Shown piece by piece: positions 17,476-62,211 of a DNA stretch of 64,000 nucleotides. The position numbers and the translations under genes are program-made. Below the pieces are notes generated by a model, which saw only the letters and a program-made list of their open reading frames with translations, did no database searches and was not told the origin of the DNA. The stretch is from Escherichia coli O127:H6 str. E2348/69. Lineage in GTDB: Bacteria; Pseudomonadota; Gammaproteobacteria; Enterobacterales; Enterobacteriaceae. Numbering within the stretch: position 1 is the stretch's first letter; every line of letters starts with the position of its first letter. The stretch lies in assembly GCF_000026545.1 (NCBI RefSeq), contig NC_011601.1; one strand, 5' to 3'.

Positions 17476-17573
17476 TTTCCTTCCCCGAACTGAAATAAAT
17501 TAGCGACACAGCTTGTGGCTGGTTTATCATCAATATAAATGTATTTTTCCCCGATTTCCCTTTTGAGGTTGAT

Positions 17574-17999
17574 GTGCAGTTAACGAGTTTCACTGATTAC
17601 GGATTACGTGCGCTGATCTACATGGCGTCATTGCCAGAAGGGCGGATGACCAGTATTTCTGAAGTGACTGACGTCTACGGCGTCTCCCGTAATCATATGG
17701 TCAAAATAATCAATCAACTTAGTCGTGCCGGCTACGTGACAGCTGTTCGTGGAAAAAATGGCGGCATTCGCTTGGGTAAACCGGCGAGTGCAATACGTAT
17801 TGGTGATGTGGTGCGCGAGCTGGAGCCCTTATCGCTGGTGAATTGCAGCAGTGAGTTTTGCCACATTACACCTGCCTGTCGGTTGAAACAGGCGCTTTCT
17901 AAGGCCGTGCAAAGTTTTCTTACGGAACTGGATAACTACACGCTTGCCGATTTGGTTGAAGAGAATCAACCGCTTTATAAATTATTGCTGGTGGAGTGA
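17574..17999 (+). CDS. nsrR: Nitric-oxide-sensing transcriptional repressor NsrR (Rrf2 family)
   Basis: 141-aa ORF; Rrf2 HTH and Cys residues for the Fe-S cluster. Confidence 0.93.
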
Positions 18000-30921: not shown

Positions 30922-32673
<1,752 letters not shown>

Positions 32674-38247: not shown

Positions 38248-38727
38248 ATGGGTAAAAAAACAGCACCGTTACTCCCTTATACGAATCAGATGCTTAGTGA
38301 ATTTGGTGAGCGGCTGAAACTTGCTCGTTTACGACGCAGGCTTACCGCAAAGCAAGTTGCTGAACGTGCTGGGATGTCGCCAATAACATTGCGCTCTCTG
38401 GAGTCAGGAAGTGCAGGGGTCACGATAGGGGCATATTTGTCTGTGATGCAGGTTTTGGGCCTGGAAACGGATTTAAATAAGCTTGCAGCTGAAGACGACT
38501 TAGGGCGTCAGCTCCAGGATTCCCGTTTGATTAAAAAAAGAGGGCTTTCTCGTTCATCAGGTAAAAATGAAGAAGGTATTCAGACAGACCCTTTTCAAAC
38601 GAGGTATGAGAAAGAAGGTTTACTCACCACGGATTTAACAGCACTGGCAGAAGGCTCAACGCCATCTATTACAGGAGAAACATCAACCTCTCTTGCAGCA
38701 CTATTAAAACCGATAAAAAACCGTTAA
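38248..38727 (+). CDS. HipB-like Xre-family HTH protein with long low-complexity C-terminal extension (candidate antitoxin/regulator)
   Basis: 159-aa ORF; [44 protein letters not shown]; start uncertain (alternative ATG at 38290); immediately upstream of HipA-like ORFs. Confidence 0.7.
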
Positions 38728-38740
38728 AAGGAAATTAATT

Positions 38741-39001
38741 ATGGCATTAATCGGAGTGTATGCGGATTGGGAAGGCCTGGATGGTCCGGAGCGGATTGGT
38801 TATTTACACAGTCGCCGCACTCGGACGCGTGAGATATTTGAGTTTGAGTACGATAAAAAGGCGCTTGCAGATCCTTCACTTAATTTCATTCAGTTAGATC
38901 CTGAAATAATGTTGTATGAGGGAGCACAGTACCCAATTCCTCCAAAGGATAAATTTGGTGCATTTAGTGATTCCTGCCCGGATCGTTGGGGCGTATGCTA
39001 A
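38741..39001 (+). CDS. HipA N-terminal-subdomain-like ORF (HipS-like), or 5' part of a frameshifted hipA-family gene
   Basis: 86-aa ORF ending FSDSCPDRWGVC*; resembles HipA N-subdomain; overlaps the next ORF by 16 nt in another frame. Confidence 0.6.
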   Translation: MALIGVYADWEGLDGPERIGYLHSRRTRTREIFEFEYDKKALADPSLNFIQLDPEIMLYEGAQYPIPPKDKFGAFSDSCPDRWGVC

Positions 39002-40008
39002 TGAAGCGTCGTTTTGAGAGGGATATTCGAGACGGGTTATGTGATAAAGACTCCCACCTTTATGAGTCTGATTATCTACTAGGTGTTCATGATCTTTATC
39101 GGGTTGGGGCTCTTCGATACAAACGTGAAGACGCTGGAGAGTTTCTTGATAATCGCATTGATGTTGCAGCCCCACCATTTACCGAAATAGCGAGTCTGGA
39201 AAGGGCTAGCCGGGCAATTGAAGAAGATCCTGATAATAAAGAGCTAATGGGGCAAAAATGGTTAAGAATGCTAATCGCTCCGGGGGGATCATTAGGGGGG
39301 GCACGTCCGAAAGCCAGTGTTGTTGATGAAGCTGGGCATCTCTACATCGCTAAATTTCCCAGTGTAAAAGATGAGTATGATGTTGGTGGATGGGAAATGG
39401 TCGTTAATGCACTTGCTGTTGGCTGTGGACTGAATGTTGCACCTGCTCAGGCGCATAAATTTGCCAGCAATTACCATTGTTTTATGGTTCGTCGTTTTGA
39501 CCGCACTAATGCGGGAAGGCGTCTGCATTTTGCTTCGGCTATGACACTAACCAGGCATCAGGATGGTGAAGATGCCTCTACAGGTGTGAGTTATCTGGAA
39601 TTAGCAGATGTTCTTATCAGGCATGGCGCGCAGACTAATACTGATCTTAAGGAACTCTGGTCCAGGATTGTTTTTAATATTCTTGTTTCTAATACCGATG
39701 ACCATTTACGTAATCATGGATATATCTTGATACCGGGAAAAGGTTGGCGGCTTTCTGAGGCATATGATTTGAATCCTGTTGCCAGGTCTGACGGTCTAAA
39801 ACTCAATATTACAGAAAATGATAATGCACTTGATTTGGAATTAGCTCGAGAAGTTGCGGAGTATTTTCGACTTGGTTTGACAGAAGCAGATGACATTATT
39901 GCTAATTTTAGAGGGATTGTCAGTCAGTGGCGAATCATTGCCGAGCGTCTTCGATTACCTGGTCGTGAGCAAGAGTTAATGGCAGAGGCGTTCAGGGGGG
40001 CAATTTAG
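38986..40008 (+). CDS. HipA-family Ser/Thr protein kinase core (HipT-like toxin candidate)
   Basis: 340-aa ORF (TTG at 38986; in-frame ATGs at 38995, 39001); Gly-rich loop PGGSLGGARPK, catalytic-loop-like SNTDDHLRNHG, AYDLNP motif, corresponding to HipA SVAGAQEK / DGHAKN / YDIIS. Confidence 0.7.
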   Translation: MGRMLMKRRFERDIRDGLCDKDSHLYESDYLLGVHDLYRVGALRYKREDAGEFLDNRIDVAAPPFTEIASLERASRAIEEDPDNKELMGQKWLRMLIAPGGSLGGARPKASVVDEAGHLYIAKFPSVKDEYDVGGWEMVVNALAVGCGLNVAPAQAHKFASNYHCFMVRRFDRTNAGRRLHFASAMTLTRHQDGEDASTGVSYLELADVLIRHGAQTNTDLKELWSRIVFNILVSNTDDHLRNHGYILIPGKGWRLSEAYDLNPVARSDGLKLNITENDNALDLELAREVAEYFRLGLTEADDIIANFRGIVSQWRIIAERLRLPGREQELMAEAFRGAI

Positions 40009-40106
40009 AATAGTTATTTTGATATATTCGCTAAATCATAAATTTGCGAAGCAATGCCAGTAGATACTGAACGTTTTGGAAGAGACGTTTAATTTATGAG
40101 AAAAAT

Positions 40107-40139
40107 AGAAACGCTACAAAGCTAAATTATAGCGTTTCT
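40107..40139. terminator. Candidate bidirectional terminator between convergent HipT-like gene and MFS transporter gene
   Basis: 9-bp inverted repeat AGAAACGCT ... AGCGTTTCT with 15-nt loop, A/T-rich flanks. Confidence 0.45.
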
Positions 40140-40150
40140 ATGTAAAATAA

Positions 40151-41428
40151 TTAGCTTGTCGCTAACTGTACTTGTGGTTCTTCGTCTTTAACTTTGATAA
40201 GCATCCACAGCGCAATGGCGCCAATAATGTCAAAGAAAGCCAGGGCAATAAAGAACGGCGCGAAGCCAATAATGTGAACGAATGCCCCGATAAACAGGTT
40301 GAAAATCAACTGACCGCTCCATGCACAGGCTCCTGCCATACCCACAGCGGTAGCTACTTCGTCTTTTTTGAATAGGTCACCGCCCAGAGTTGCTGCAACA
40401 GTAGAAAGACATTGATGCGAGAATGCGCCAATGCTAATCAGTAATACGGCGATGTAGGGATTTTCGACAATACTCACCAGACCAATCGTCATCATAATGA
40501 CGGCTGCAATAGTGAAGGTAATTCTTCGTGAGTTAATTAAACTCACGCCGCGATCGTGGAAGAACTTCGCGACAAAACCACTGGCTAAACAGCCGAGATC
40601 GCCCAGCAGGAAAGGCAGCCAGACGAACATGGCAATTTCTTTCAGGCTAAAATGCAGCGTTTCGACGAAGAAAATCGGTACCCAGAAGTTAATGGTTCCC
40701 CATGCCGGGTCAGCGAGAAAACGCGCGATGCCAATCCCCCAGAAATTACGTTGGCTGAGGATATGCTTGATTGACGTTTTTTCTTTCTTATCTGTTTTAA
40801 GATGCTGTTCTTGCCCAGACTCAATATAGTGGCGCTCTTCATCAGAAAGGCGTTTAGCATCTTTTGGATCTTTATAACAAAAGAACCAAAATAAAGCCGC
40901 GAGTAAAGCAAGGCTACCTGAGACAATAAACGCAAATTGCCAGCTATGAAACATAATGCACCAGGCAATCAACGGTGGAGCAAGCATCGCGCCGAGTGAG
41001 GTGCCCATATTGAAAACACCTGTCGCCACGCCACGCTCTTTTGCCGGGAACCATGTTGATGCGGTTTTTACACCCGCAGGAATTGCCGATGCTTCGCTGA
41101 AACCCATCAGGGCGCGCATAAATGCCAGACCTGACCATGTTCCTGTCAAGGCATGCCCCATTGTCGCCAGGCCCCAGATTGCGGCACATATCGCAAAACT
41201 TAACTTCAGACCCACGGTATCAATAAAGAAGCCCATTATCGGTTGCCCCAATGTATAGGCCAACTGGAATGCACTGACAATCCATGAATATTGTTCTTTG
41301 GTTATTCCGGTTGTCTCCATAATCGTTGGAGCCGCAATACCTAACGCCGTTCTGTCCAGATAATTGATTACAGTGATAAAGCATACGAGGGCAATCATAT
41401 GCCATCGATAATTCTTTATTTTATTCAT
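40151..41428 (-). CDS. MFS transporter, anion:cation symporter (ACS) family (ExuT/GarP/DgoT-like organic-acid transporter)
   Basis: 425-aa ORF, ~12 TM segments, N-terminal YLDRTALGIAAP motif typical of ACS-family sugar-acid transporters. Confidence 0.8.
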   Translation of the reverse strand: MNKIKNYRWHMIALVCFITVINYLDRTALGIAAPTIMETTGITKEQYSWIVSAFQLAYTLGQPIMGFFIDTVGLKLSFAICAAIWGLATMGHALTGTWSGLAFMRALMGFSEASAIPAGVKTASTWFPAKERGVATGVFNMGTSLGAMLAPPLIAWCIMFHSWQFAFIVSGSLALLAALFWFFCYKDPKDAKRLSDEERHYIESGQEQHLKTDKKEKTSIKHILSQRNFWGIGIARFLADPAWGTINFWVPIFFVETLHFSLKEIAMFVWLPFLLGDLGCLASGFVAKFFHDRGVSLINSRRITFTIAAVIMMTIGLVSIVENPYIAVLLISIGAFSHQCLSTVAATLGGDLFKKDEVATAVGMAGACAWSGQLIFNLFIGAFVHIIGFAPFFIALAFFDIIGAIALWMLIKVKDEEPQVQLATS

Positions 41429-41520
41429 TTTTAAACCTTTTAATTATATTAATAAACCCTGGTTATTGGTATTTCCATGTAATAGGCAATAAAAATCAGG
41501 TACAGAGGAAATATTGAAAA

Positions 41521-43593
41521 TTATTGTGTGTAAATGTCTCCCTTTAAAAAGTCTGGCCAGTTTTTTTCAAAGTAAATACCGTTAATACACGGTTGAATAC
41601 GTAAAGACTTTACTTCGGTAATAAAAGAACCTTGCGAATATTGAATTGTTAATTTGTGATTTTTGTCTTCAGCGAGTTCAGAGCGAAAACGCCATTCTTC
41701 TTTTGCGCCGCGACGAGTTTGTGGTAGGCATTTGCCTTGTGGATCAATAACCATACGCGCCCCACGGCTACCACCACCAGCATCAATATAATGCGTTAAT
41801 TGTGTTAATACCGCGGCAGAAGTCAGCGCCATATGCCGCCACATAAACAGCTCGGCAACTTCACCCACATGTTTGATTGCCAATCCATGCCGTTGCACAA
41901 ATTCACTCAATAGCAGGGCATCACGAGTGGCGCGTCGGACTTTATCGGCATGGCAAATAAATCCCGCATGGTCAGACATTCGTGCCTGAATTTTTTCTCT
42001 CACAACCGACAACGGCATCCCGGTCCCGTTATCGTGCGCCTGAGTAATGATCTCTCTTATAGAAGCCAGTGCCGGAGCTGCCAGCTGTGCAATATCTCCA
42101 TCAATATTCCGCTTTTGCGTGCAACCAATAAAGCGCGCCAGACGAACAGCAAAAACCTGCCCGGCATTCAACGCCGCGCCGCCAGGTCGGGTGACGCCGT
42201 GTGTGCCAGCAACTTCCCCCACCGCAAAACAACCGGGCAGAGATGTTTGTCCCCAGATATCGACTTCAATGCCGCCATTCATGTGCTGATTATTCATGGC
42301 AAACTGCAATGGCTGCGTGATGAGATCGTAACCGTGCATCTTATACAGCGAGATAGACAGAGGATTCATTCGTTGCAGGCGTTCGATGGGCGATGGTGCC
42401 AGAGCGTCGTTATTTTCCAGATACGTGCGAACGTCGTCGTCCAGTCGATCTAATGAGAACGGCAGGTCACCCGGCACAGGTTCAGGATTGCGATTGAAAT
42501 CCATAAATACCTGACGCCCTGATTGCTGCTCTTGCGCCACCGCCATATCTAACAAGCTGGAGCCAAAATCCATTACCCGCGTGGCGTGGAATGGCCACTG
42601 ATAGCCTTTACGGAAGATGTTTGAAGCCAACTCCTGGGTGGTGCGATAGTAATCTGCGAGGAAGTTATACTCGTTGCCCCCAGCATCCACGGAATAGATA
42701 TATGGGATCACCTGTACATAGGTGCCGGACAAATTCCACGGAAACGTGCTGCGCGGTGTGCCGATACCAAACTGGCTTTCAGTCAGATTCGTTAACGTCA
42801 GACCTTCCTCCAGCGCCAGCCCCAGCGAGCCGAAACATTTGTGTGGATACACACTGTCGCGATAAAGCTCGCCAGGCCCGCCTGTTGCCAGTACCACATT
42901 GGGTGCAGTCACAATTGCCAGCCCCCATGGGTTATGGGCGCGATGACCGGTCGCGAGGATTGCCCCCGCCACACGGTCTTCACCGTTTTCGTCACGCTGA
43001 TGCAGCAGTTTAATCACTGTTGCACTGGTCAACATTGGGATAGCAAGACGCTGTACTTCTTCCAGCAGCACTTTCACCATTAACCTTGAGGTACGCGGCC
43101 CACACGAGGTTGCACGCCCGGCTTCGTCGTGGTCGGTTTGATAACGAAGAATCGCGCCATAGCGATCTTCCGGTAATTCCAGACCAAGATATTGCAACCC
43201 GCCAAGAGTGTGCAGAGAACCTACCGCTTCAACATAAGCGGTGTCGTGATCCATCGCCCCACCGCTCGCCAGTGCCTCTGCCAGTTTGGCGAAGTTGTCG
43301 CCGTTGCCCGCGGTAGCGGCGGTAAACAGTGTTTGTTTATCAGAGCCAGAACATGCCGACGTCCCCATATATAACCCGGCGGTGGCGATTAACACATTTT
43401 GCTGGCGGCGTTTAAGTTCCACAGCTGCACGCAGCCCGGCTGCACCACTGCCGACTACCAGGGCATCTGTTTTCCAGAGTGGGTAATCAACACCGTCTAC
43501 CGTGACAACCCATGCGGGGTCTGCCTGTGCAAAACCCTTTGGGAAAGTAACGTGCGTCAGCGCATCAAGGATGGTGTCATCAAGCTGACTCAT
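41521..43593 (-). CDS. FAD-binding oxidoreductase (fumarate reductase/succinate dehydrogenase flavoprotein-like superfamily)
   Basis: 690-aa ORF with Rossmann dinucleotide motif ALVVGSGAAGLRAAVEL near N-terminus; start codon overlaps upstream gene stop (ATGA). Confidence 0.7.
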   Translation of the reverse strand: MSQLDDTILDALTHVTFPKGFAQADPAWVVTVDGVDYPLWKTDALVVGSGAAGLRAAVELKRRQQNVLIATAGLYMGTSACSGSDKQTLFTAATAGNGDNFAKLAEALASGGAMDHDTAYVEAVGSLHTLGGLQYLGLELPEDRYGAILRYQTDHDEAGRATSCGPRTSRLMVKVLLEEVQRLAIPMLTSATVIKLLHQRDENGEDRVAGAILATGHRAHNPWGLAIVTAPNVVLATGGPGELYRDSVYPHKCFGSLGLALEEGLTLTNLTESQFGIGTPRSTFPWNLSGTYVQVIPYIYSVDAGGNEYNFLADYYRTTQELASNIFRKGYQWPFHATRVMDFGSSLLDMAVAQEQQSGRQVFMDFNRNPEPVPGDLPFSLDRLDDDVRTYLENNDALAPSPIERLQRMNPLSISLYKMHGYDLITQPLQFAMNNQHMNGGIEVDIWGQTSLPGCFAVGEVAGTHGVTRPGGAALNAGQVFAVRLARFIGCTQKRNIDGDIAQLAAPALASIREIITQAHDNGTGMPLSVVREKIQARMSDHAGFICHADKVRRATRDALLLSEFVQRHGLAIKHVGEVAELFMWRHMALTSAAVLTQLTHYIDAGGGSRGARMVIDPQGKCLPQTRRGAKEEWRFRSELAEDKNHKLTIQYSQGSFITEVKSLRIQPCINGIYFEKNWPDFLKGDIYTQ

Positions 43594-45131
43594 GCATCCT
43601 CCATCGGCGTAAACAGGCTGCTTTCCATCAGACGTGGGTGCCTGATAATCGGACGGAAGGCCATGAATGGCAGAATGTCGCGCTCAATCTCTACGCCAGG
43701 GGCGATCTCAATTAATTCAACGCCTTCTGCCGTTAACTGGAATACCGCACGTTCGGTGATATACAGCACTTCCTGACCGCTTTGCTGTGCGTAGGCGGCG
43801 CTAAAGGTGATTTTTTCCACCAGGGCAACCAATTTAGGGATTTGACCTGACTGGGCGATATGCAAGCCATCTGGCGTTACATCAATCTTGCTGCCTTTGG
43901 CGTCGAACGTACCGCAAAACACCACTTTACGGGCGTTTTGTGCAATTTCGAGAAATCCGCCGGGGCCAATGAGATTGCCATTAAGATGGGATACGTTGAC
44001 GTTACCGTACCGATCCATCTCTCCCATGCCGAGGAAGGTGATATCGATACCGCCGCCACTGTAGAATTCGAATTGATCGAGTGATGGAATAATGGCATCG
44101 GCGTTACGGGCGCAGCCGAACAGAGCATCATCCAGCATCATGCCGTTATGTACACCCTGTTCTACACTCAGCCACAAACTTTGATAAGGCACGCCTTCGC
44201 GCAGCGCAACCCCAGGAATACCGCCGGGAATACCAAAGCCAAAGTTGGTTGAAGCGCCTGCCACCAGTTCCCGCGCTGCCCGACGGGCAATCAGGCGACG
44301 CACCGGATGACTAACCAGTTCAATAGCGTCGTTAGAACTTAGACGGCGATGTTGACCGCTGATGGTCAGGTCGTAACCGCCAAGATAGGTTTGCGGTTGT
44401 TCGCGGTGCTCAACGATGCCATCGACCAGAATTCCTGGTAGCTTGACCCGACGTGGTTCAATGGTACCTGCTTCCAGCACATCGCGGACCTGTACGAACA
44501 CTTTGCCGCCGCTGTTGTGTGCTGCCAGCGCCATCGAATAGCTATCCATATAAATCGCTTCTTCTTCGAGGCTAACGTTGCCTCGTGGATCGGCATAAGT
44601 GCCACGCAAAATCGCGTAATCCACTTTGAAAGGGCGATAACGAAGTTTGGTCTCACCGTCGATTTCAATCAGTTCTACCAGGTCGTCGGTAGTGCATTCA
44701 TTCGACTTACCGCCGCCATTGCGTGGATCAACAAACGATCCCAGCCCAACGTGGGTAAAAAGCCCCGGACGTCCGGCACCGATCTCCCGCAGCAGTGCCT
44801 GAATTACGCCACCAGGGAAACAGTAGGCTTCAATAGCATTGCTTTTCACCAGTTCCTGCATCTTGGGCGACCAGGTAAAATGTCCGGCAATAATGCGTTT
44901 GAGCATTTCGGCGTGAGCAAAACGGTTAGTGCCTTTGCTGTCGCGATCGCCAATACCCAGCGAGTGGATTAATGTCAGATCGCGCGGGTGTCCGGTTTGC
45001 AGGAAACGCGCTTCAATGGCGGCCAGAATATGGTCAGCTTCCACCATACCGCCGCCGTTACCGCTAATGGCAATGGTTGCGCCGTCCTGAATTTGCGCCG
45101 CCAGTGTCTCGGCGGTTGATAACTTACGCAT
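43590..45131 (-). CDS. Family-I acyl-CoA:acetate/3-ketoacid CoA-transferase (fused alpha/beta, YdiF-like)
   Basis: 513-aa ORF; N-terminus MRKLSTAETLAAQIQDGATIAISGNGGG and overall layout resemble fused family-I CoA-transferases. Confidence 0.75.
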   Translation of the reverse strand: MRKLSTAETLAAQIQDGATIAISGNGGGMVEADHILAAIEARFLQTGHPRDLTLIHSLGIGDRDSKGTNRFAHAEMLKRIIAGHFTWSPKMQELVKSNAIEAYCFPGGVIQALLREIGAGRPGLFTHVGLGSFVDPRNGGGKSNECTTDDLVELIEIDGETKLRYRPFKVDYAILRGTYADPRGNVSLEEEAIYMDSYSMALAAHNSGGKVFVQVRDVLEAGTIEPRRVKLPGILVDGIVEHREQPQTYLGGYDLTISGQHRRLSSNDAIELVSHPVRRLIARRAARELVAGASTNFGFGIPGGIPGVALREGVPYQSLWLSVEQGVHNGMMLDDALFGCARNADAIIPSLDQFEFYSGGGIDITFLGMGEMDRYGNVNVSHLNGNLIGPGGFLEIAQNARKVVFCGTFDAKGSKIDVTPDGLHIAQSGQIPKLVALVEKITFSAAYAQQSGQEVLYITERAVFQLTAEGVELIEIAPGVEIERDILPFMAFRPIIRHPRLMESSLFTPMEDA

Positions 45132-45140
45132 ACAATTTCC

Positions 45141-45923
45141 TTATTGATTGTGGAAGCTCACGCCGGCTTTTTCGGCAAATGCGTGCGTCGCCTGTTGGCA
45201 ATCCTGAGTGGCGGACATTAATCCAGCCAGTAACTGGTGGGAGTAATCGGCGTGTTTATTTTCCAGCGCCAGAATCAGTTGCTTAATATGTGCCAGTGCC
45301 ACCGGACCACATTTTTCCAGCTGCGCTAACTGGTTCACCATCCAGCTTTCCACCTGTTCTTTTTCTACCACTTCATCAATTAAATTCGCTGTCTGAGCTT
45401 CCTGCGCCGTCAGGCGTTTACCCAGCATCAGCATCTGGCGACCGACCACCGGGCCAACCTGATTAAGCACGCGTTCAATGCCCATCCAGCCAGGCACCAT
45501 GCCGAGCATCACTTCCGGGTTAGAGAATTTCGCGCCGGGGCGAGCGATACGAATATCACAGCACAAGGCGAGTTCAATCCCACCGCCAATGGTATGACCG
45601 TTGAGATTTGCAACCGTTAATTGGGGTAAATTGCGCAGGCGATTAAAAACCTCGTTACCGCGTTTAATCCATTTTCTGCCCATATCTAATGGCGAATAGG
45701 CCGACCACGATTTAATATCGCCGCCCGCACAAAAGAATTTATCGCCGGTTGCCGTTAATTCGACTAATCGTAATGTGGTGTCGTTTTCAATTTCATTTAA
45801 ATAATGGTCGAGAGATTCGATCATTTCTTCATTAATAGCATGACATTTATCTTCACGGTTCAATGTCAGGCGGCAAGAAGCCGCCGCTCTGCTGAACAGA
45901 ACGGGTTGGTCATTCATGATCAT
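45141..45923 (-). CDS. Enoyl-CoA hydratase/isomerase (crotonase superfamily)
   Basis: 260-aa ORF with crotonase oxyanion-hole motifs FCAGGDIK and NGHTIGGG. Confidence 0.75.
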   Translation of the reverse strand: MIMNDQPVLFSRAAASCRLTLNREDKCHAINEEMIESLDHYLNEIENDTTLRLVELTATGDKFFCAGGDIKSWSAYSPLDMGRKWIKRGNEVFNRLRNLPQLTVANLNGHTIGGGIELALCCDIRIARPGAKFSNPEVMLGMVPGWMGIERVLNQVGPVVGRQMLMLGKRLTAQEAQTANLIDEVVEKEQVESWMVNQLAQLEKCGPVALAHIKQLILALENKHADYSHQLLAGLMSATQDCQQATHAFAEKAGVSFHNQ

Positions 45924-45926
45924 TCC

Positions 45927-46769
45927 TTAACAATAATGTGCGATGCGATCGACGCTAATATCCAGCGTGCTGTTAATATCTTTCTGCCACCAGTACGGTG
46001 AGAATATTTCCAGTTCAATAGCGCCATTAAATCCGGCGTTTTCAACCAGCCGACGAATTGACGGAATATTGATGACACCATCTCCCGGCATTCCACGGTC
46101 ATTGACCAGATCGGTGGTCGGCACTAACCAGTCGGAAACATGAAACGCGAGGATGCGTTTTCCGGCACGCAGGATCTGACTGGCGAGATCCGGGTCCCAC
46201 CAGACATGGTAGACATCTACCGCCACGCCGAGGCCAAATTCGCCATCGGGATCGAGTTCATCACACCAGTCCAGCGCCTGACGTAACGTGCACAGACAAG
46301 AACGATCGGCAGCAGTCATCGGGTGCAGTGGCTCCAGTGCAATTGGCACGCCGACCTCTTTCGAATGTGGCAGCAACTGGCGAATCCCTTGTTTCACCTG
46401 TTCCCGTGCTTCGTACAGATCTTTTGTTCCCATTGGCAGACCGCCAACCACCTGCATATAACAGGCGGCGTTCAGTACAGCGGCGTCGTCCAGCGCCCGG
46501 CGGTTATCGTCAATCGCCAGTTTGCGCTCCGCCAGCGTCGGTGCGGTGTAGTAGGTGCTACGGCACAAACCGGAAACGTTCATGTTACTGGCAGCAAGCT
46601 GGCGGGCGATTTGCTGGAGATCTTCACTCTGCAACTCCCTGCGCCAGGGGGCAATCGCGCCAATACCGCGTGCGGCGCAGGCATCAATAATGGCGGGTAG
46701 CGGCGTTTTATAGCCCAGTGTCGCGGTATTGATACTGAATAAATCCGGGCGTTGTAACAGATCTCTCAT
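45927..46769 (-). CDS. Sugar phosphate isomerase/epimerase-like TIM-barrel protein (xylose-isomerase-like fold)
   Basis: 280-aa ORF; pattern resembles AP-endonuclease-2 / xylose-isomerase-like TIM-barrel proteins (weak, by eye). Confidence 0.55.
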   Translation of the reverse strand: MRDLLQRPDLFSINTATLGYKTPLPAIIDACAARGIGAIAPWRRELQSEDLQQIARQLAASNMNVSGLCRSTYYTAPTLAERKLAIDDNRRALDDAAVLNAACYMQVVGGLPMGTKDLYEAREQVKQGIRQLLPHSKEVGVPIALEPLHPMTAADRSCLCTLRQALDWCDELDPDGEFGLGVAVDVYHVWWDPDLASQILRAGKRILAFHVSDWLVPTTDLVNDRGMPGDGVINIPSIRRLVENAGFNGAIELEIFSPYWWQKDINSTLDISVDRIAHYC

Positions 46770-46778
46770 GATTCAGCC

Positions 46779-47570
46779 TCAGAAGCGCGGCATACTTAAG
46801 CCGCCGTCGATGGCGACCGCCTGACCACAGGTGTAAATCAGTTTACCTTCCGCCATCGCGCGGACAGTGGAAGCAATATCAGCCGGATAACCCCAACGTC
46901 CCCACGGCACCAGACCTTTGGCAATCAGTTCGTCGTAATAGGCCGTTGCCGGAATAGTCATATCGGTTTTGATGAGACCAGGACGCACTTCATATACGCC
47001 AATTTGTTCATTACAAAGGCGAGCAGCAAACAGACGAGCAGCGGCAGAGACGGCAGTTTTGGCAATGGTATATTCGCCGCGATTCATCGCCAGCATGATG
47101 GCGTTGATGGAACTGACAAAAATAATCGAGCGGTGCGGCAGTTCTGCTTCCGGTTTCGGCTGTGCCAGTAAGCGCTTACTGAATGCCTGAGCAAGGAAGA
47201 ACGGTGCGCGGGTGTTAATGGCAATATTTTGGTCGAAGCTGTCTGGTTCGAGGTCGAGAAGGTCACCGCGTTTTTTCACTGAAATGCCTGCGTTGTTGAG
47301 CAGGCAGTCCAGACGTCCCCACTGGTTTTGCGCTGCGTCGAGCATCTCTTCATGCAGGGAGAGATCGCCCACATCAGCAGGGAAGCAAATCACTTCCACG
47401 CCTTCCGCCAGACATTCTTGTTGTGTGGCATGTAATTTTTCTACGCTATCGGCATCCGGACGATCATTAATCAGCAGATTAAATCCGCCACGCGCAAGCT
47501 CCAGCGCACAGCCTTTTCCAATACCACGTGCGGCTCCGGTAATCACGGCAACAGGACGAGTGGATTTCAT
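46779..47570 (-). CDS. Short-chain dehydrogenase/reductase (SDR)
   Basis: 263-aa ORF with TGAARGIG cofactor motif, NNAG, catalytic YxxxK (YTIAK). Confidence 0.85.
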   Translation of the reverse strand: MKSTRPVAVITGAARGIGKGCALELARGGFNLLINDRPDADSVEKLHATQQECLAEGVEVICFPADVGDLSLHEEMLDAAQNQWGRLDCLLNNAGISVKKRGDLLDLEPDSFDQNIAINTRAPFFLAQAFSKRLLAQPKPEAELPHRSIIFVSSINAIMLAMNRGEYTIAKTAVSAAARLFAARLCNEQIGVYEVRPGLIKTDMTIPATAYYDELIAKGLVPWGRWGYPADIASTVRAMAEGKLIYTCGQAVAIDGGLSMPRF

Positions 47571-47783
47571 ACAATAGCTCTCTTTTTTTTGAATTTTGTT
47601 TCCTTAGTGATGATTAGCTTGCGACTGGAGGGTAAAAAGATCAACCATCTAGTTGGTTGATATGCGATGGCGATCACAGGACATTTGATAACCTGATGAA
47701 AGTACAAGTTTTTGCCCTTTTTTCTGAAGCTGAAATCAAATCAGGTTATGATAGTCACCACGAAGAGGTCGTGGGGAAGCGTT

Positions 47784-48431
47784 ATGTATCTTGATACCAG
47801 CAACGTACAGAGCCTGAAAGAAAAGCTGCTGTTATGCGCGGTTAATGAATTTGCCGAATATGGTTACGAAGGGGCCAGAGTCGATAATATCGTCAAGGCC
47901 GCGGGGTGCAGTAAACAGACGGTTTATCACCACTTTGGTAATAAAGAAAATTTATTTATCGAAGTACTGGAATATACCTGGAACGATATTCGACAAAAAG
48001 AAAAGGCCCTTGATTTCTCAGATCTTCCGCCACAGAAAGCCATTGAGAAAATAATCGATTTTACATGGGATTATTATATTTCTAATCCCTGGTTTTTAAA
48101 AATTGTGCATAGTGAAAATCAAAGTAAGGGTGTGCATTATGCAAAATCACAGCGTCTTTTAGAAATTAACCATGCGCACTTGCAGTTAATGGAATCCTTA
48201 TTGGATGAAGGGAAGAAACAAAATATTTTTAAGCCAGATATCGACCCATTGCAGGTGAATATTAATATTGCTGCGCTTGGGGGATATTATTTGATCAACC
48301 AGCATACGCTTGGCCTGGTTTATCACATCAGTATGGTTTCACCGCAGGCACTGGAAGCCAGACGTAAGGTCATCAAAGAGACAATCCTTAGCTGGCTTTT
48401 GGTTGACCCTTCATCTACCGCGCGCGAATAA
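47784..48431 (+). CDS. TetR/AcrR-family transcriptional regulator, divergent from the catabolic operon
   Basis: ORF 47712..48431; likely start ATG 47784 (MYLDTSN) preceded by GGGGAAG; Tet[32 protein letters not shown]. Confidence 0.8.
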
Positions 48432-49919: not shown

Positions 49920-51469
49920 CTGTCTCTTATACACAAATCCCCACCCGGGGATTTGTGATGTCTGTCAGTCTGCTTTAGGGGGACTCTTTCCATCCGGTAG
50001 TTTCCTTCCTCCCCGGCAGCGATTTTTTGAACTTTTTCCTCACCTGTTGATCTTCTCTTATATTTCATTTTCTTCGGGTCTGTTATGGTACTTTCTGATT
50101 GTTATTCATGGGCTAACGAGCAGTTTGGACATGCCCGTCTCGGTGATCCGCGTCGTACACGACGCCTTGTGTCACTGGCCTCTTCTCTCGCTCAGCATGC
50201 AGGTCTTTCTATTGTGAAATCATCCCAGTCCACTGCTCAGGTTGAAGGTGCGTACCGCCTGATACGTAACCCGTCTGTGTCCCCGCAAGCCATTGCCGAA
50301 GCCGGATTTACCGCCACTGTAAGGGCATGTGAGGCTCATCCGCTGCTCCTCGCGCTGGAAGACACCACCACCATTAACTTCAGTCACAGTACGGCATCTG
50401 ATGACCTGGGGAATACCACCACTAACCCGAAGACGCGCGGGCTGCTGGCTCACTCTGTCCTGATGTACGCCCCCGACAGCGCCCTGCCAGTCGGTCTTAT
50501 CGAACAGCAGCGCTGGAGTCGTGCCACGGACACCTACGGTGTTAAGCACCAGCGAAAAGAACGTCCCTATGAAGAAAAAGAAAGTTACCGCTGGCAGCAG
50601 GCTTCGGAGCGCATGGCCGAACGGCTGGGGGAGATACAGAAACGGGTAATCACTGTCTGTGACCGGGAAGCGGATATCTGGCATTACCTGCATTATAAAG
50701 TCAGCCACGGGCAGCGCTTCGTGGTGCGTGCAGCACAGAATCGCCGGCTGGAAGAAGCACCCGGCAAGCTCTTCGAACTGCCGGAAGTCCTGGCAACCGC
50801 GGGAAGCCACACGCTGAATGTGATGCAAAAAGGCGGGCGGGCAGCCCGCCAGGCCCGGATGTTCATCAGTTACAGCGAAGTCAGCATAAAAAATCCCGAC
50901 AACAGCGGCCAGGCGCTCCCGCTCACGTATGTCTGTTGCCGGGAGCAGGCAGAGGACGGCGCCTGCTGGCATCTGCTGACGTCAGAAAAAGTGGCGAGTG
51001 CCGCCGATGCGCGACGTATCGTCAGCCATTACGAGCGACGCTGGCTGATAGAGGAATACCACAAGGCGTGGAAAAGTGGTGGTACATGTGTGGAATCGCT
51101 GTGAATGCAGACCCGGGATAACCTCGAGCGCATGGTGGTTATCAAGGCGTTTATCGCGGTGCGGGTGCTGGGCCTGCGGCAGGGCGGTATCAGTGAAGAA
51201 ACACAAAATGACAGCTGTGAGAAAATACTGACGCCGACAGAGTGGAAACTGCTGTGGGTTAAGCTGGAAGGAAAACCGCTTCCGTCACAGATGCCGACAC
51301 TGAAATGGGCCTGTCTGAAACTGGCGAAACTGGGGCGATGGCATGACAGCAAACGCACCGGTCGCCCCGGTTGGGTAGTCATGTGGGATGGCTGGTTCAG
51401 ACTTCAGGATATGGTTGAGGGTTACCTGGTGATGAAGTCTCTTGATCAGGAGATCTGATCAAGAGACAG
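49920..51469 (+). mobile_element. IS50-like insertion sequence (IS4 family), ~1.55 kb, with terminal inverted repeats and ~9-bp flanking direct repeats
   Basis: Left end CTGTCTCTTATACACAAAT (49920-) and right end AGATCTGATCAAGAGACAG (-51469) match IS50 OE/IE-type ends; flanks CGAACCAG at 49912-49919 and 51470-51477; internal transposase homologous to Tn5 Tnp. Confidence 0.85.
50085..51458 (+). pseudogene. IS50-like DDE transposase interrupted by in-frame TGA (339-aa + 117-aa fragments)
   Basis: ORFs 50085..51104 and 51105..51458 share one frame, separated by TGA at 51102-51104; Tn5-Tnp-like motifs GDPRRT, ALEDTT, CDREADI, RWLIEEYHKAWK in the first part and DNLERMV / DSKRTG in the second. Confidence 0.8.
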
Positions 51470-53214: not shown

Positions 53215-53877
53215 TCACTCACCCGCCAGCGCGCGCGGGAATAGTACATTGTTTTCCAGACTGATGTGCTCCATCAGGTCATCAATCAGTTCATTAATGC
53301 CGTTATACATCGCTTTCCAGGTGGTGCAGGCTTCCGGCGGCGGTGTGACGTTATTGGTGGTGTGTTTGATCACTTCCAGCAGTTCGCCCGCTTCATCGTG
53401 CTCGCTTTCCATTACGCTGATTGGCCCCATTGCCTGGCTGCCCATGCCTTGTTTAATCATCGGGAAGAGAATTTGCTCTTCTTTCATCATGTGGCTGGAA
53501 AGCTCTTCATGCAGCATAGTCAGGTATTTTGTCAGCCCTTTTGGCACACTTGGTTTGTCGGCGTGAACGCGCTCGACTTTAGTCGCTTGCAGGATCAGCT
53601 CCGGCAGCTGCTCGCGATGGCGATCGTGATAGCGCACAATAATGTGGTCGATGATTTCCGCCAGCGGCGCGCTACGCCAGTCTTTCTCAATCGGTTGTTC
53701 AGCAAGCTTTGCCAGTTCGGCTTCAATGACGTCAACATCCAGTTCTTTACGTGCCGCCGCGCGCGCCAGCGTCTGCTTACCGCCACAGCAGTAATCCATA
53801 TCATATTTACGAAACAGAGCCGAAGCGCGAGGAATAGAGAGCGCCAGTTCACCTAAAGGTTGGTCGCGATAAGCCAT
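53215..53877 (-). CDS. ytfE: Iron-sulfur cluster repair di-iron protein YtfE (RIC)
   Basis: 220-aa ORF with ScdA_N and hemerythrin-like domains. Confidence 0.93.
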
Positions 53878-53903
53878 AGCTGATACCTCATTCTTAATAA
53901 GAT

Positions 53904-53926
53904 AAGATGTATTTTAAATGCACCTT
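53904..53926. promoter_or_regulatory. NsrR operator in the ytfE promoter
   Basis: AAGATGTATTTTAAATGCACCTT, close match to the NsrR inverted-repeat consensus AAGATGCATTTAAAATACATCTT; 27 bp upstream of the ytfE start. Confidence 0.75.
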
Positions 53927-53984
53927 TAAGGCAAAAGCTATAACCCTTACGTAGCAGAGGCTTATTTAACTCACTGCCAGCGTG

Positions 53985-54959
53985 TCAACTTTCTGAGACA
54001 GATTCAGTTAAAGGTTTTTCTGGTTTTGCTCTGACCGCGATGACCACGCCAATCACTAACAGCGCGATACCGCTCAGCGTCATTAGCGGCGGCATTTGCT
54101 GGCGGAGTAAAAAGGTGTACAGCAAACCTGCCAGCGTTTCGAAAACAATCAGCGGCCCGAGAATCACTGTCGGTAATCGCTGGCTGGCGACGTTCCAGCA
54201 GAGTGCGCCAACCCATGAGCAAAGCACGGCTATCGCAACCATCAGACTAATAAACACCAGCGGACGGGGGCCAAAGGGTAAGGAGAAGTCCGGCGTTTGC
54301 ATATTCAGCCAGTAACAGGCGACGAGATAGCCGATGAGAGAAACCGGCAGCGTGACCAGCGCCTGCGCCGTCGCCCACATCATCGGATGTTTGTCGGGAT
54401 TTTCCCGCAGCCAGCGGGCGTTGCGCAGGGCATACCATGCCCAGCAGACCACGGAAACTAACGCTAGCACGATGCCTGAGGTATAACGTGCCCAGTCAAA
54501 ATCGGGGAGTCCGTGGTTTAACTCAGCAATATTCACACACGCCAGGCCGATGCCAATACAAACCAGTGCCGGGGCGAGTTTTCCCCACGCGAGTTTGCCA
54601 TCGCGCTGGCTATAAAGCAGATTGGCAAAAACGGGAATCACCACCGGCAGGGTGCCGATAATCATCGTGGAAACAGGTGCGCCAGTACGTTGAATGGCAC
54701 TGGCGAGGCAGAAGTAATAGATGAGGTTGCCCATCATAGTGAGCATCAAGGCGGTAAGCCAGTCGCGACGCGCCAACTGACGCAGACGCACGCGTCCCAG
54801 CCAGGCAATGGGCAGCGCAATTAACCCTAACGCCAGATAACGCCCCATCGACTGCAACATCGCCGGGTATTCCGGTACGATCAACGGCCCGACAAAAATA
54901 AGCCCCCACATCAACCCTGCTAACAGGGCGTACAGCACGCCGCTAATCATTACTGGCAT
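53985..54959 (-). CDS. ytfF: DMT-superfamily inner-membrane transporter YtfF
   Basis: 324-aa polytopic ORF (EamA-like); true start may be a few codons downstream. Confidence 0.85.
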   Translation of the reverse strand: MPVMISGVLYALLAGLMWGLIFVGPLIVPEYPAMLQSMGRYLALGLIALPIAWLGRVRLRQLARRDWLTALMLTMMGNLIYYFCLASAIQRTGAPVSTMIIGTLPVVIPVFANLLYSQRDGKLAWGKLAPALVCIGIGLACVNIAELNHGLPDFDWARYTSGIVLALVSVVCWAWYALRNARWLRENPDKHPMMWATAQALVTLPVSLIGYLVACYWLNMQTPDFSLPFGPRPLVFISLMVAIAVLCSWVGALCWNVASQRLPTVILGPLIVFETLAGLLYTFLLRQQMPPLMTLSGIALLVIGVVIAVRAKPEKPLTESVSES

Positions 54960-62168: not shown

Positions 62169-62211
62169 ACAAAATGCACTTTATCAACAATCTACATTTG
62201 TACCCGTAACG

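Follow-up and report, generated by a model that had tools for sequence, protein, structure and literature searches.

Positions 53904–53926 of the stretch analysed here, a window of 64,000 nt from Escherichia coli O127:H6 strain E2348/69 (NC_011601.1), very probably form the NsrR operator of the ytfE promoter, at which NsrR carrying its Fe-S cluster (holo-NsrR) would occlude the promoter until nitric oxide (NO) relieves the block. We put the probability of this reading at about 95%. Four things are established here: the identities of both genes, the motif match of the operator, its conservation, and the fact that it is orthologous to a site shown by experiment to be bound. The NsrR–ytfE circuit itself is already known: a prediction of 2005 was followed by its demonstration in 2006 and by genome-wide ChIP mapping. 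New here are only the rare operator allele at position 53923 in E2348/69 and a conserved block upstream of the operator. An earlier reading of the DNA letters (the sequence-only reading) had described the classical nitrosative-stress circuit in this window, and that description holds: NsrR and YtfE both pass equivalog models, and the operator is orthologous to the ChIP-bound site of strain CFT073. The regulator and operator pair can thus be identified correctly from sequence alone.

The coordinates that had been proposed for nsrR are exactly those of the RefSeq annotation. The gene starts with GTG and encodes a protein of 141 amino acids that is identical in sequence to K-12 NsrR and passes the NCBIfam equivalog model NF008240 over its whole length (292.8 bits against a cut-off of 182, residues 1–141 of 141). 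The Rrf2 superfamily model was also passed, the Rrf2 winged-helix domain PF02082 was found at residues 3–130 with 129.5 bits, and cysteines 91, 96 and 102 correspond to the three conserved C-terminal ligands of the Fe-S cluster. An identity as IscR was rejected on scores of 55.6 against a cut-off of 207.55 (TIGR02010) and 43.3 against 275 (NF008110), and an identity as RirA on a score of 102.7 against 193. Judged by these model scores, the product is NsrR proper, not IscR or RirA. The GTG start of nsrR and its Shine-Dalgarno region, GAGGTTGAT (start codon and region together within 17560–17576), are conserved in the nine Enterobacterales genera compared; GTG was found in all nine, and the Shine-Dalgarno stretch varies slightly in Dickeya and Yersinia. 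Chhabra & Spiro reportedly described, in 2015, inefficient translation of nsrR and low abundance of NsrR, and the conserved GTG and Shine-Dalgarno region are consistent with both.

The regulated gene, ytfE, had also been named correctly. It is annotated in RefSeq on the - strand, with cycA and ytfF as neighbours, and its product passes the equivalog model NF008221 (417.7 bits, cut-off 254) and contains the domains ScdA_N (PF04405) and hemerythrin-like (PF01814). Compared with its K-12 counterpart, YtfE carries two conservative changes, E49D and D203E.

Features of the NsrR–ytfE system, with positions counted from the first letter of the window
Feature	Position	Strand	Basis
NsrR operator of ytfE	53904..53926	-	Matrix score; orthology to K-12 and CFT073 sites; 80/80 Enterobacteriaceae loci
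Promoter-proximal half-site AAGATGTATTT	53904..53914	+	Best 11-nt half-site in the window, 14.76 bits
Promoter-distal half-site AAGGTGCATTT	53916..53926	-	14.29 bits, second only to the proximal half-site in the window
Rare operator variant, G in the ytfE sense (C on +), A in K-12 and CFT073; position 4 of the distal half-site	53923	-	Comparison with K-12
Candidate -10 hexamer TAAAAT at the operator centre, operator positions 11–16 (model A)	53911..53916	-	Deduced from conservation
Model B: alternative -10 hexamer TATCTT, in most taxa TATATT; its first base is the operator's last	53899..53904	-	Deduced from conservation
Conserved upstream block, GTAAGGGTTATAGC in E. coli; overlaps NarL/NarP-like 7-2-7 TGCTACG-TA-AGGGTTA	53937..53956	-	Column conservation, 80 loci
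ytfE Shine-Dalgarno GAGG	53886..53889	-	Read from the sequence; conserved across 80 loci
ytfE (RIC), di-iron protein for Fe-S cluster repair; regulated gene	53215..53877	-	220-codon ORF, RefSeq annotation
nsrR, trans-acting NO-sensing Rrf2-family repressor; first gene upstream of rnr	17574..17999	+	141-codon ORF, RefSeq annotation

On the + strand the operator reads AAGATGTATTT-T-AAATGCACCTT, an 11-1-11 inverted repeat with exactly the letters given by the sequence-only reading. In the ytfE sense it is AAGGTGCATTT-A-AAATACATCTT, with two inverted AAGATGCATTT-like half-sites of 11 bp and an exact 1-bp spacer. A script check found the arms complementary at 9 of 11 positions. The arms share no exact complementary run longer than 4 nt, and a repeat finder using 6-nt exact seeds therefore did not detect the operator. 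The operator base closest to ytfE lies at -27, with 26 nt between the operator and the ATG (whose A is 53877 on the - strand), in agreement with the 27 bp proposed earlier; the operator centre is 38 nt 5′ of the ytfE start.

For scoring, a palindromic weight matrix was derived from the 25 distinct NsrR palindromes that have been published for CFT073, not counting that of ytfE (PMC5320621 Table 4). With this ytfE-free matrix the operator scored 29.5 bits, above all of the 25 other published sites, which scored 7.9–25.9 bits when each was left out in turn. This score, together with the orthology to the published ytfE site, supports the earlier description of a near-consensus NsrR operator.

The ytfE NsrR site was first predicted through comparative genomics (PMC1274295), and the orthologous sites of two other E. 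coli strains have been reported. The K-12 site, AAGATGCATTTAAAATACATCTT (Bodenmiller & Spiro 2006, Partridge et al. 2009, as cited in PMC5320621), is at the same locus and position and shares 22 of its 23 bases with the operator in the window. Over 131 aligned nt the window differs from K-12 MG1655 at one base, 53923, and the rest of the 107-nt ytfF–ytfE intergenic region is identical. The CFT073 site, AAGATGCATTTAAAATGCATCTT, has the same geometry and is the top-ranked 11-1-11 palindrome of that genome, with ln P -25.13 (PMC5320621); its arms are perfectly complementary, whereas the window differs from it at 53910 and 53923, which reduces the match between the arms to 9/11. NsrR ChIP-seq in CFT073 gave a peak over the site, enriched 9.65-fold and with its summit ~50 nt upstream of the ytfE start (PMC5320621), which agrees with the position of the operator centre here within the resolution of ChIP. 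Expression of ytfE responds as expected of an NsrR target in several systems: CFT073 ytfE was 69.6-fold up with nitrate (PMC5320621), ytfE mRNA was 544-fold up in a Salmonella nsrR mutant (PMC2884951), and in EHEC a PytfE fusion stayed off in the absence of NO and was switched on by an NO donor (PMC7336997).

Conservation was assessed in 80 ytfE loci, taken from one genome per species of Escherichia, Enterobacter, Citrobacter, Klebsiella, Kosakonia, Kluyvera, Lelliottia and other genera of the Enterobacteriaceae. The operator was present in all of them, with scores of 23.8–31 bits, and ended 24–27 nt 5′ of the ATG; the gap was 26 nt in 64 of the 80. Sixteen of its 23 positions were invariant across these loci and the upstream flank was near random. 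The variable positions (4/20, 7/17, 10/14 and 21, plus 13, with T for A in 2/80 loci) mirror the degenerate positions of the motif. Within E. coli, a 1-kb query containing the 3′ end of cycA, ytfE and the 3′ end of ytfF matched E2348/69 at 100% identity and was 95–99% identical to most of 5,416 other complete genomes. Relative to K-12, 25 of the 663 nt of the ytfE coding region are changed, and one of the 107 nt of the ytfF–ytfE intergenic region. The ytfE protein and promoter are both under strong purifying selection. E. albertii ytfE differs from that in the window at 34 nt, all of them synonymous, and encodes an identical protein.

The single intergenic change relative to K-12 falls within the operator, at 53923. 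Of ~5,400 complete E. coli genomes, 7 have the exact 47-mer containing the operator; they come from 5 distinct strains and are three E2348/69 assemblies, CFSAN018748, Z0117EC0116, MS 85-1 and 20KM2222. The K-12 allele of the 47-mer was found in 2,020 genomes and the CFT073 allele in 875, and the differences in other common versions were confined to the flank. Three of ~5,415 matches to the ytfE promoter 47-mer were on plasmid-labelled records, and some genomes had two copies.

We consider it unlikely that the A-to-G change at 53923 lowers NsrR binding to what would still be a real operator, so that E2348/69 and the few strains with the same allele would express ytfE more leakily or induce it at a lower NO level. 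The allele is rare (7 of ~5,410 genomes), and it is the lone change in an otherwise invariant intergenic region beside a coding region with many changes; both observations would fit weaker binding. The change also costs ~1.3 bits of matrix score, from 30.8 in K-12, but the remaining 29.5 bits are still above the score of every other published site. Orthologous operators mostly have A at this position (71/80 species), yet T, G and C also occur there, and position 4 is the least constrained core position among 50 published half-sites (T 21, A 20, G 9). Moreover, the published ygbA site has the resulting 11-mer, AAGGTGCATTT, as its left half. Because position 4 is degenerate and the same half-site is found at ygbA, the change is predicted to be near-neutral, leaving the operator functional and at most slightly weakened. 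In E2348/69, the EPEC prototype, the strongest NsrR operator of the genome is present as a rare natural variant. PytfE serves as an in vivo reporter of NO, and NsrR also affects the LEE virulence genes of attaching/effacing E. coli (PMC7336997, PMC3887101); for these reasons a change of operator affinity confined to particular strains would be of interest, although the change predicted here is nearly nil.

A scan of positions 53700–54100, which include the ytfF–ytfE intergenic region, found no consensus sigma-70 promoter and no terminator-like structure between ytfF and ytfE. The promoter geometry was therefore deduced from conservation, and two arrangements were considered. In model A the -10 hexamer would coincide with the centre of the operator, where TAAAAT, TAATAT or TATAAT is present in 80 of 80 orthologous loci. 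The central base of the operator, which is the second base of this hexamer, is A in 81/81 loci; in other NsrR sites the centre is free. In model B the hexamer would begin at the last base of the operator, and the ATATT directly 3′ of the operator is conserved in 69–80 of the 80 loci. Under either model NsrR would cover or abut the -10 hexamer and the start site, making promoter occlusion the likeliest mode of repression. The abstract of the 2006 paper reportedly states that the ytfE inverted repeat overlaps the -10 element. From this statement and from conservation we infer promoter occlusion, the exact -10 hexamer and the start site.

In the proposed mechanism, NsrR produced from nsrR would act in trans on the ytfE promoter, its cluster-bound form binding as a dimer to the two 11-bp half-sites. 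As the operator covers or adjoins the -10 and start region, bound NsrR would bar RNA polymerase and ytfE would be silent. On exposure to NO the cluster of NsrR would be nitrosylated, DNA binding would be lost and ytfE would be strongly induced. Release of NsrR through nitrosylation of its Fe-S cluster is described in two reports (PMC2577008, PMC4432287).

It is quite improbable that NsrR instead blocks elongation at an operator lying in the transcribed leader, with transcription coming from further upstream, for example from the TATAGC block or as read-through out of ytfF. A conserved, TATA-containing block does lie 10–24 nt 5′ of the operator, but it ends in C rather than the near-invariant T of a -10 hexamer. 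Read-through would be compatible with the lack of a terminator-like structure in the scanned region between ytfF and ytfE, and neither candidate -10 hexamer has a consensus -35; nevertheless, two good and conserved -10-like hexamers are present in or directly after the operator, and the 2006 paper reportedly puts the repeat over the -10 element.

Arm symmetry alone does not set the operator apart from chance, since generic 11-1-11 repeats matching at 9 or more of 11 positions number 24 in the window. Agreement with the NsrR motif, in contrast, goes far beyond chance: the score has p ~6e-12 per position and is expected 4e-7 times per 64 kb, and none of 200 first-order Markov simulations, each of 64 kb, exceeded 23.7 bits. 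The generic repeats, and the resemblance of the operator centre to a -10 hexamer, could suggest a chance AT-rich palindrome, a mere -10 region without NsrR binding or the site of another regulator, but this is effectively refuted by the rarity of such a score, by the invariance in 80 species of the outer AAG.TG and CA.CTT, which a -10 hexamer cannot explain, by ChIP-seq binding of the orthologous CFT073 site (PMC5320621) and by derepression of ytfE in nsrR mutants (PMC2884951).

When the window was scanned for further NsrR sites, as the sequence-only reading had proposed, the next-best full match scored 17.35 bits. This sequence, AAATTGAATGTGTAATGCAATTA (31066–31088), is in the ulaG–ulaA intergenic region, a divergent promoter region. 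A score of this size is expected 0.03–0.07 times per window and 0.008 times in the AT-rich ulaG–ulaA region. No peak near ula is found among the 49 promoter-associated NsrR ChIP-seq peaks of CFT073 (PMC5320621), and we regard the sequence as a candidate NsrR site only.

A single half-site of 13.5 bits was found close to nsrR itself, TAAATGTATTT on the + strand (17536–17546) and AAAATACATTT on the - strand, together spanning 17536–17547. It lies 27–37 nt 5′ of the nsrR GTG, directly after the predicted promoter GCGACA-16-TATCAT. The half-site was missing from all eight of the other Enterobacterales nsrR loci compared, and in these the promoter core, Shine-Dalgarno and GTG start were conserved. 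Autoregulation of nsrR through TAAATGTATTT as a conserved feature is therefore unlikely and was rejected; the half-site probably resembles the motif by chance. Overlapping NsrR-like half-sites, AAAGTGCATTT on the - strand (13.6 bits) and AAAATGCACTT on the + strand, were also seen at 62171–62182, between the 3′ end of msrA and the region upstream of paeA.

The conserved block upstream of the operator, C-n-AAAGGG-K-TATA-K-C, is located ~10–29 nt 5′ of it and equals it in conservation across the 80 loci. The block was compared with the NarL/NarP 7-2-7 pattern TACYYMT-NN-AKRRGTA, and the centre of the match was 21.5 nt 5′ of the operator in 74/81 loci. In 43 loci 12–13 of the 14 positions matched, and random 60-mers reached 12 in <1% of trials. 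The right heptamer matched at 6–7 of 7 positions in 74 of the 77 non-Escherichia loci, and the left half was weaker; the E. coli copy (53956–53941) matched at only 10 of 14. Model A would place the centre of the pattern near -43.5 or -44.5.

These matches raise the possibility, which we advance tentatively, that in most Enterobacteriaceae the ytfE promoter has two inputs, the NsrR operator and a NarL/NarP-type heptamer pair nnCYYCn-AA-AGGGKTA. Alternatively, the block could be the site of another factor or a structural element. Readings of it as an IscR type-2, FNR, sigma-54 or sigma-28 element were considered by inspection only, and none fits. Candidate NarP sites have been noted near some NsrR targets (PMC1274295), and our literature search found no statement of direct regulation of ytfE by NarL or NarP. 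The K-12 yeaR promoter was examined as a geometric analogue from which the ytfE start site might be fixed, and was not decisive: between its NsrR site and its best 7-2-7 match, which lies upstream, the distance is 39.5 nt instead of the 21.5 nt seen at ytfE. If the ytfE promoter does have two inputs, nitrate/nitrite sensing would activate what NO sensing derepresses; the Escherichia lineage would then have retained the right heptamer only, and E2348/69 would add to this its rare operator variant. Further upstream, 5′ of the conserved block and ~40–55 nt 5′ of the operator, many Enterobacter, Citrobacter and Kluyvera loci have a CRP-like TGTGA-N6-TCACA sequence. E. coli is without a good copy because the ytfF stop codon occupies that spot.

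The sequence-only reading had drawn attention to the presence of the regulator gene and its operator in one window. Both are indeed there and were correctly named, but their co-occurrence is incidental. NsrR targets are spread around the chromosome and NsrR acts on them in trans (PMC5320621). As the two genes are also 36 kb apart, the shared window has no demonstrated meaning. A cis relationship between nsrR and ytfE was considered and found no support. The distance shifts with strain-specific insertions: it is 25 kb in K-12, and the greater distance here is due to insertions between rplI and cycA. Relative to K-12, the inserted segments of this interval are 38248–48431 and 50085–51458. They consist of a toxin-antitoxin pair (HTH/HipA-like, frameshifted), a cluster of six genes for an MFS transporter, an FAD oxidoreductase, a CoA transferase, an enoyl-CoA hydratase, an isomerase and a reductase, accompanied by a TetR regulator, and an ISEc13 transposase pseudogene interrupted by an internal stop.

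The 11-1-11 architecture of the ytfE operator is shared by the NsrR operators of ygbA, hmp, hcp and yeaR. The likeness to ygbA, which is cited as NsrR-regulated (PMC5320621), extends to the half-site that its operator has in common with the distal arm at ytfE. The yeaR and ygbA operators also resemble that of ytfE in having a -10-like hexamer (TAAAAT and TATATT, respectively) at operator positions 11–16. The four operators differ from the ytfE site in their weaker match to the motif, with leave-one-out scores of 17–26 bits against 29.5, and in their partner regulators and promoter geometry. At the level of the protein, NsrR has its fold family and the ligation of its cluster by three cysteines in common with the other Rrf2-family Fe-S repressors IscR, RirA and Streptomyces NsrR.
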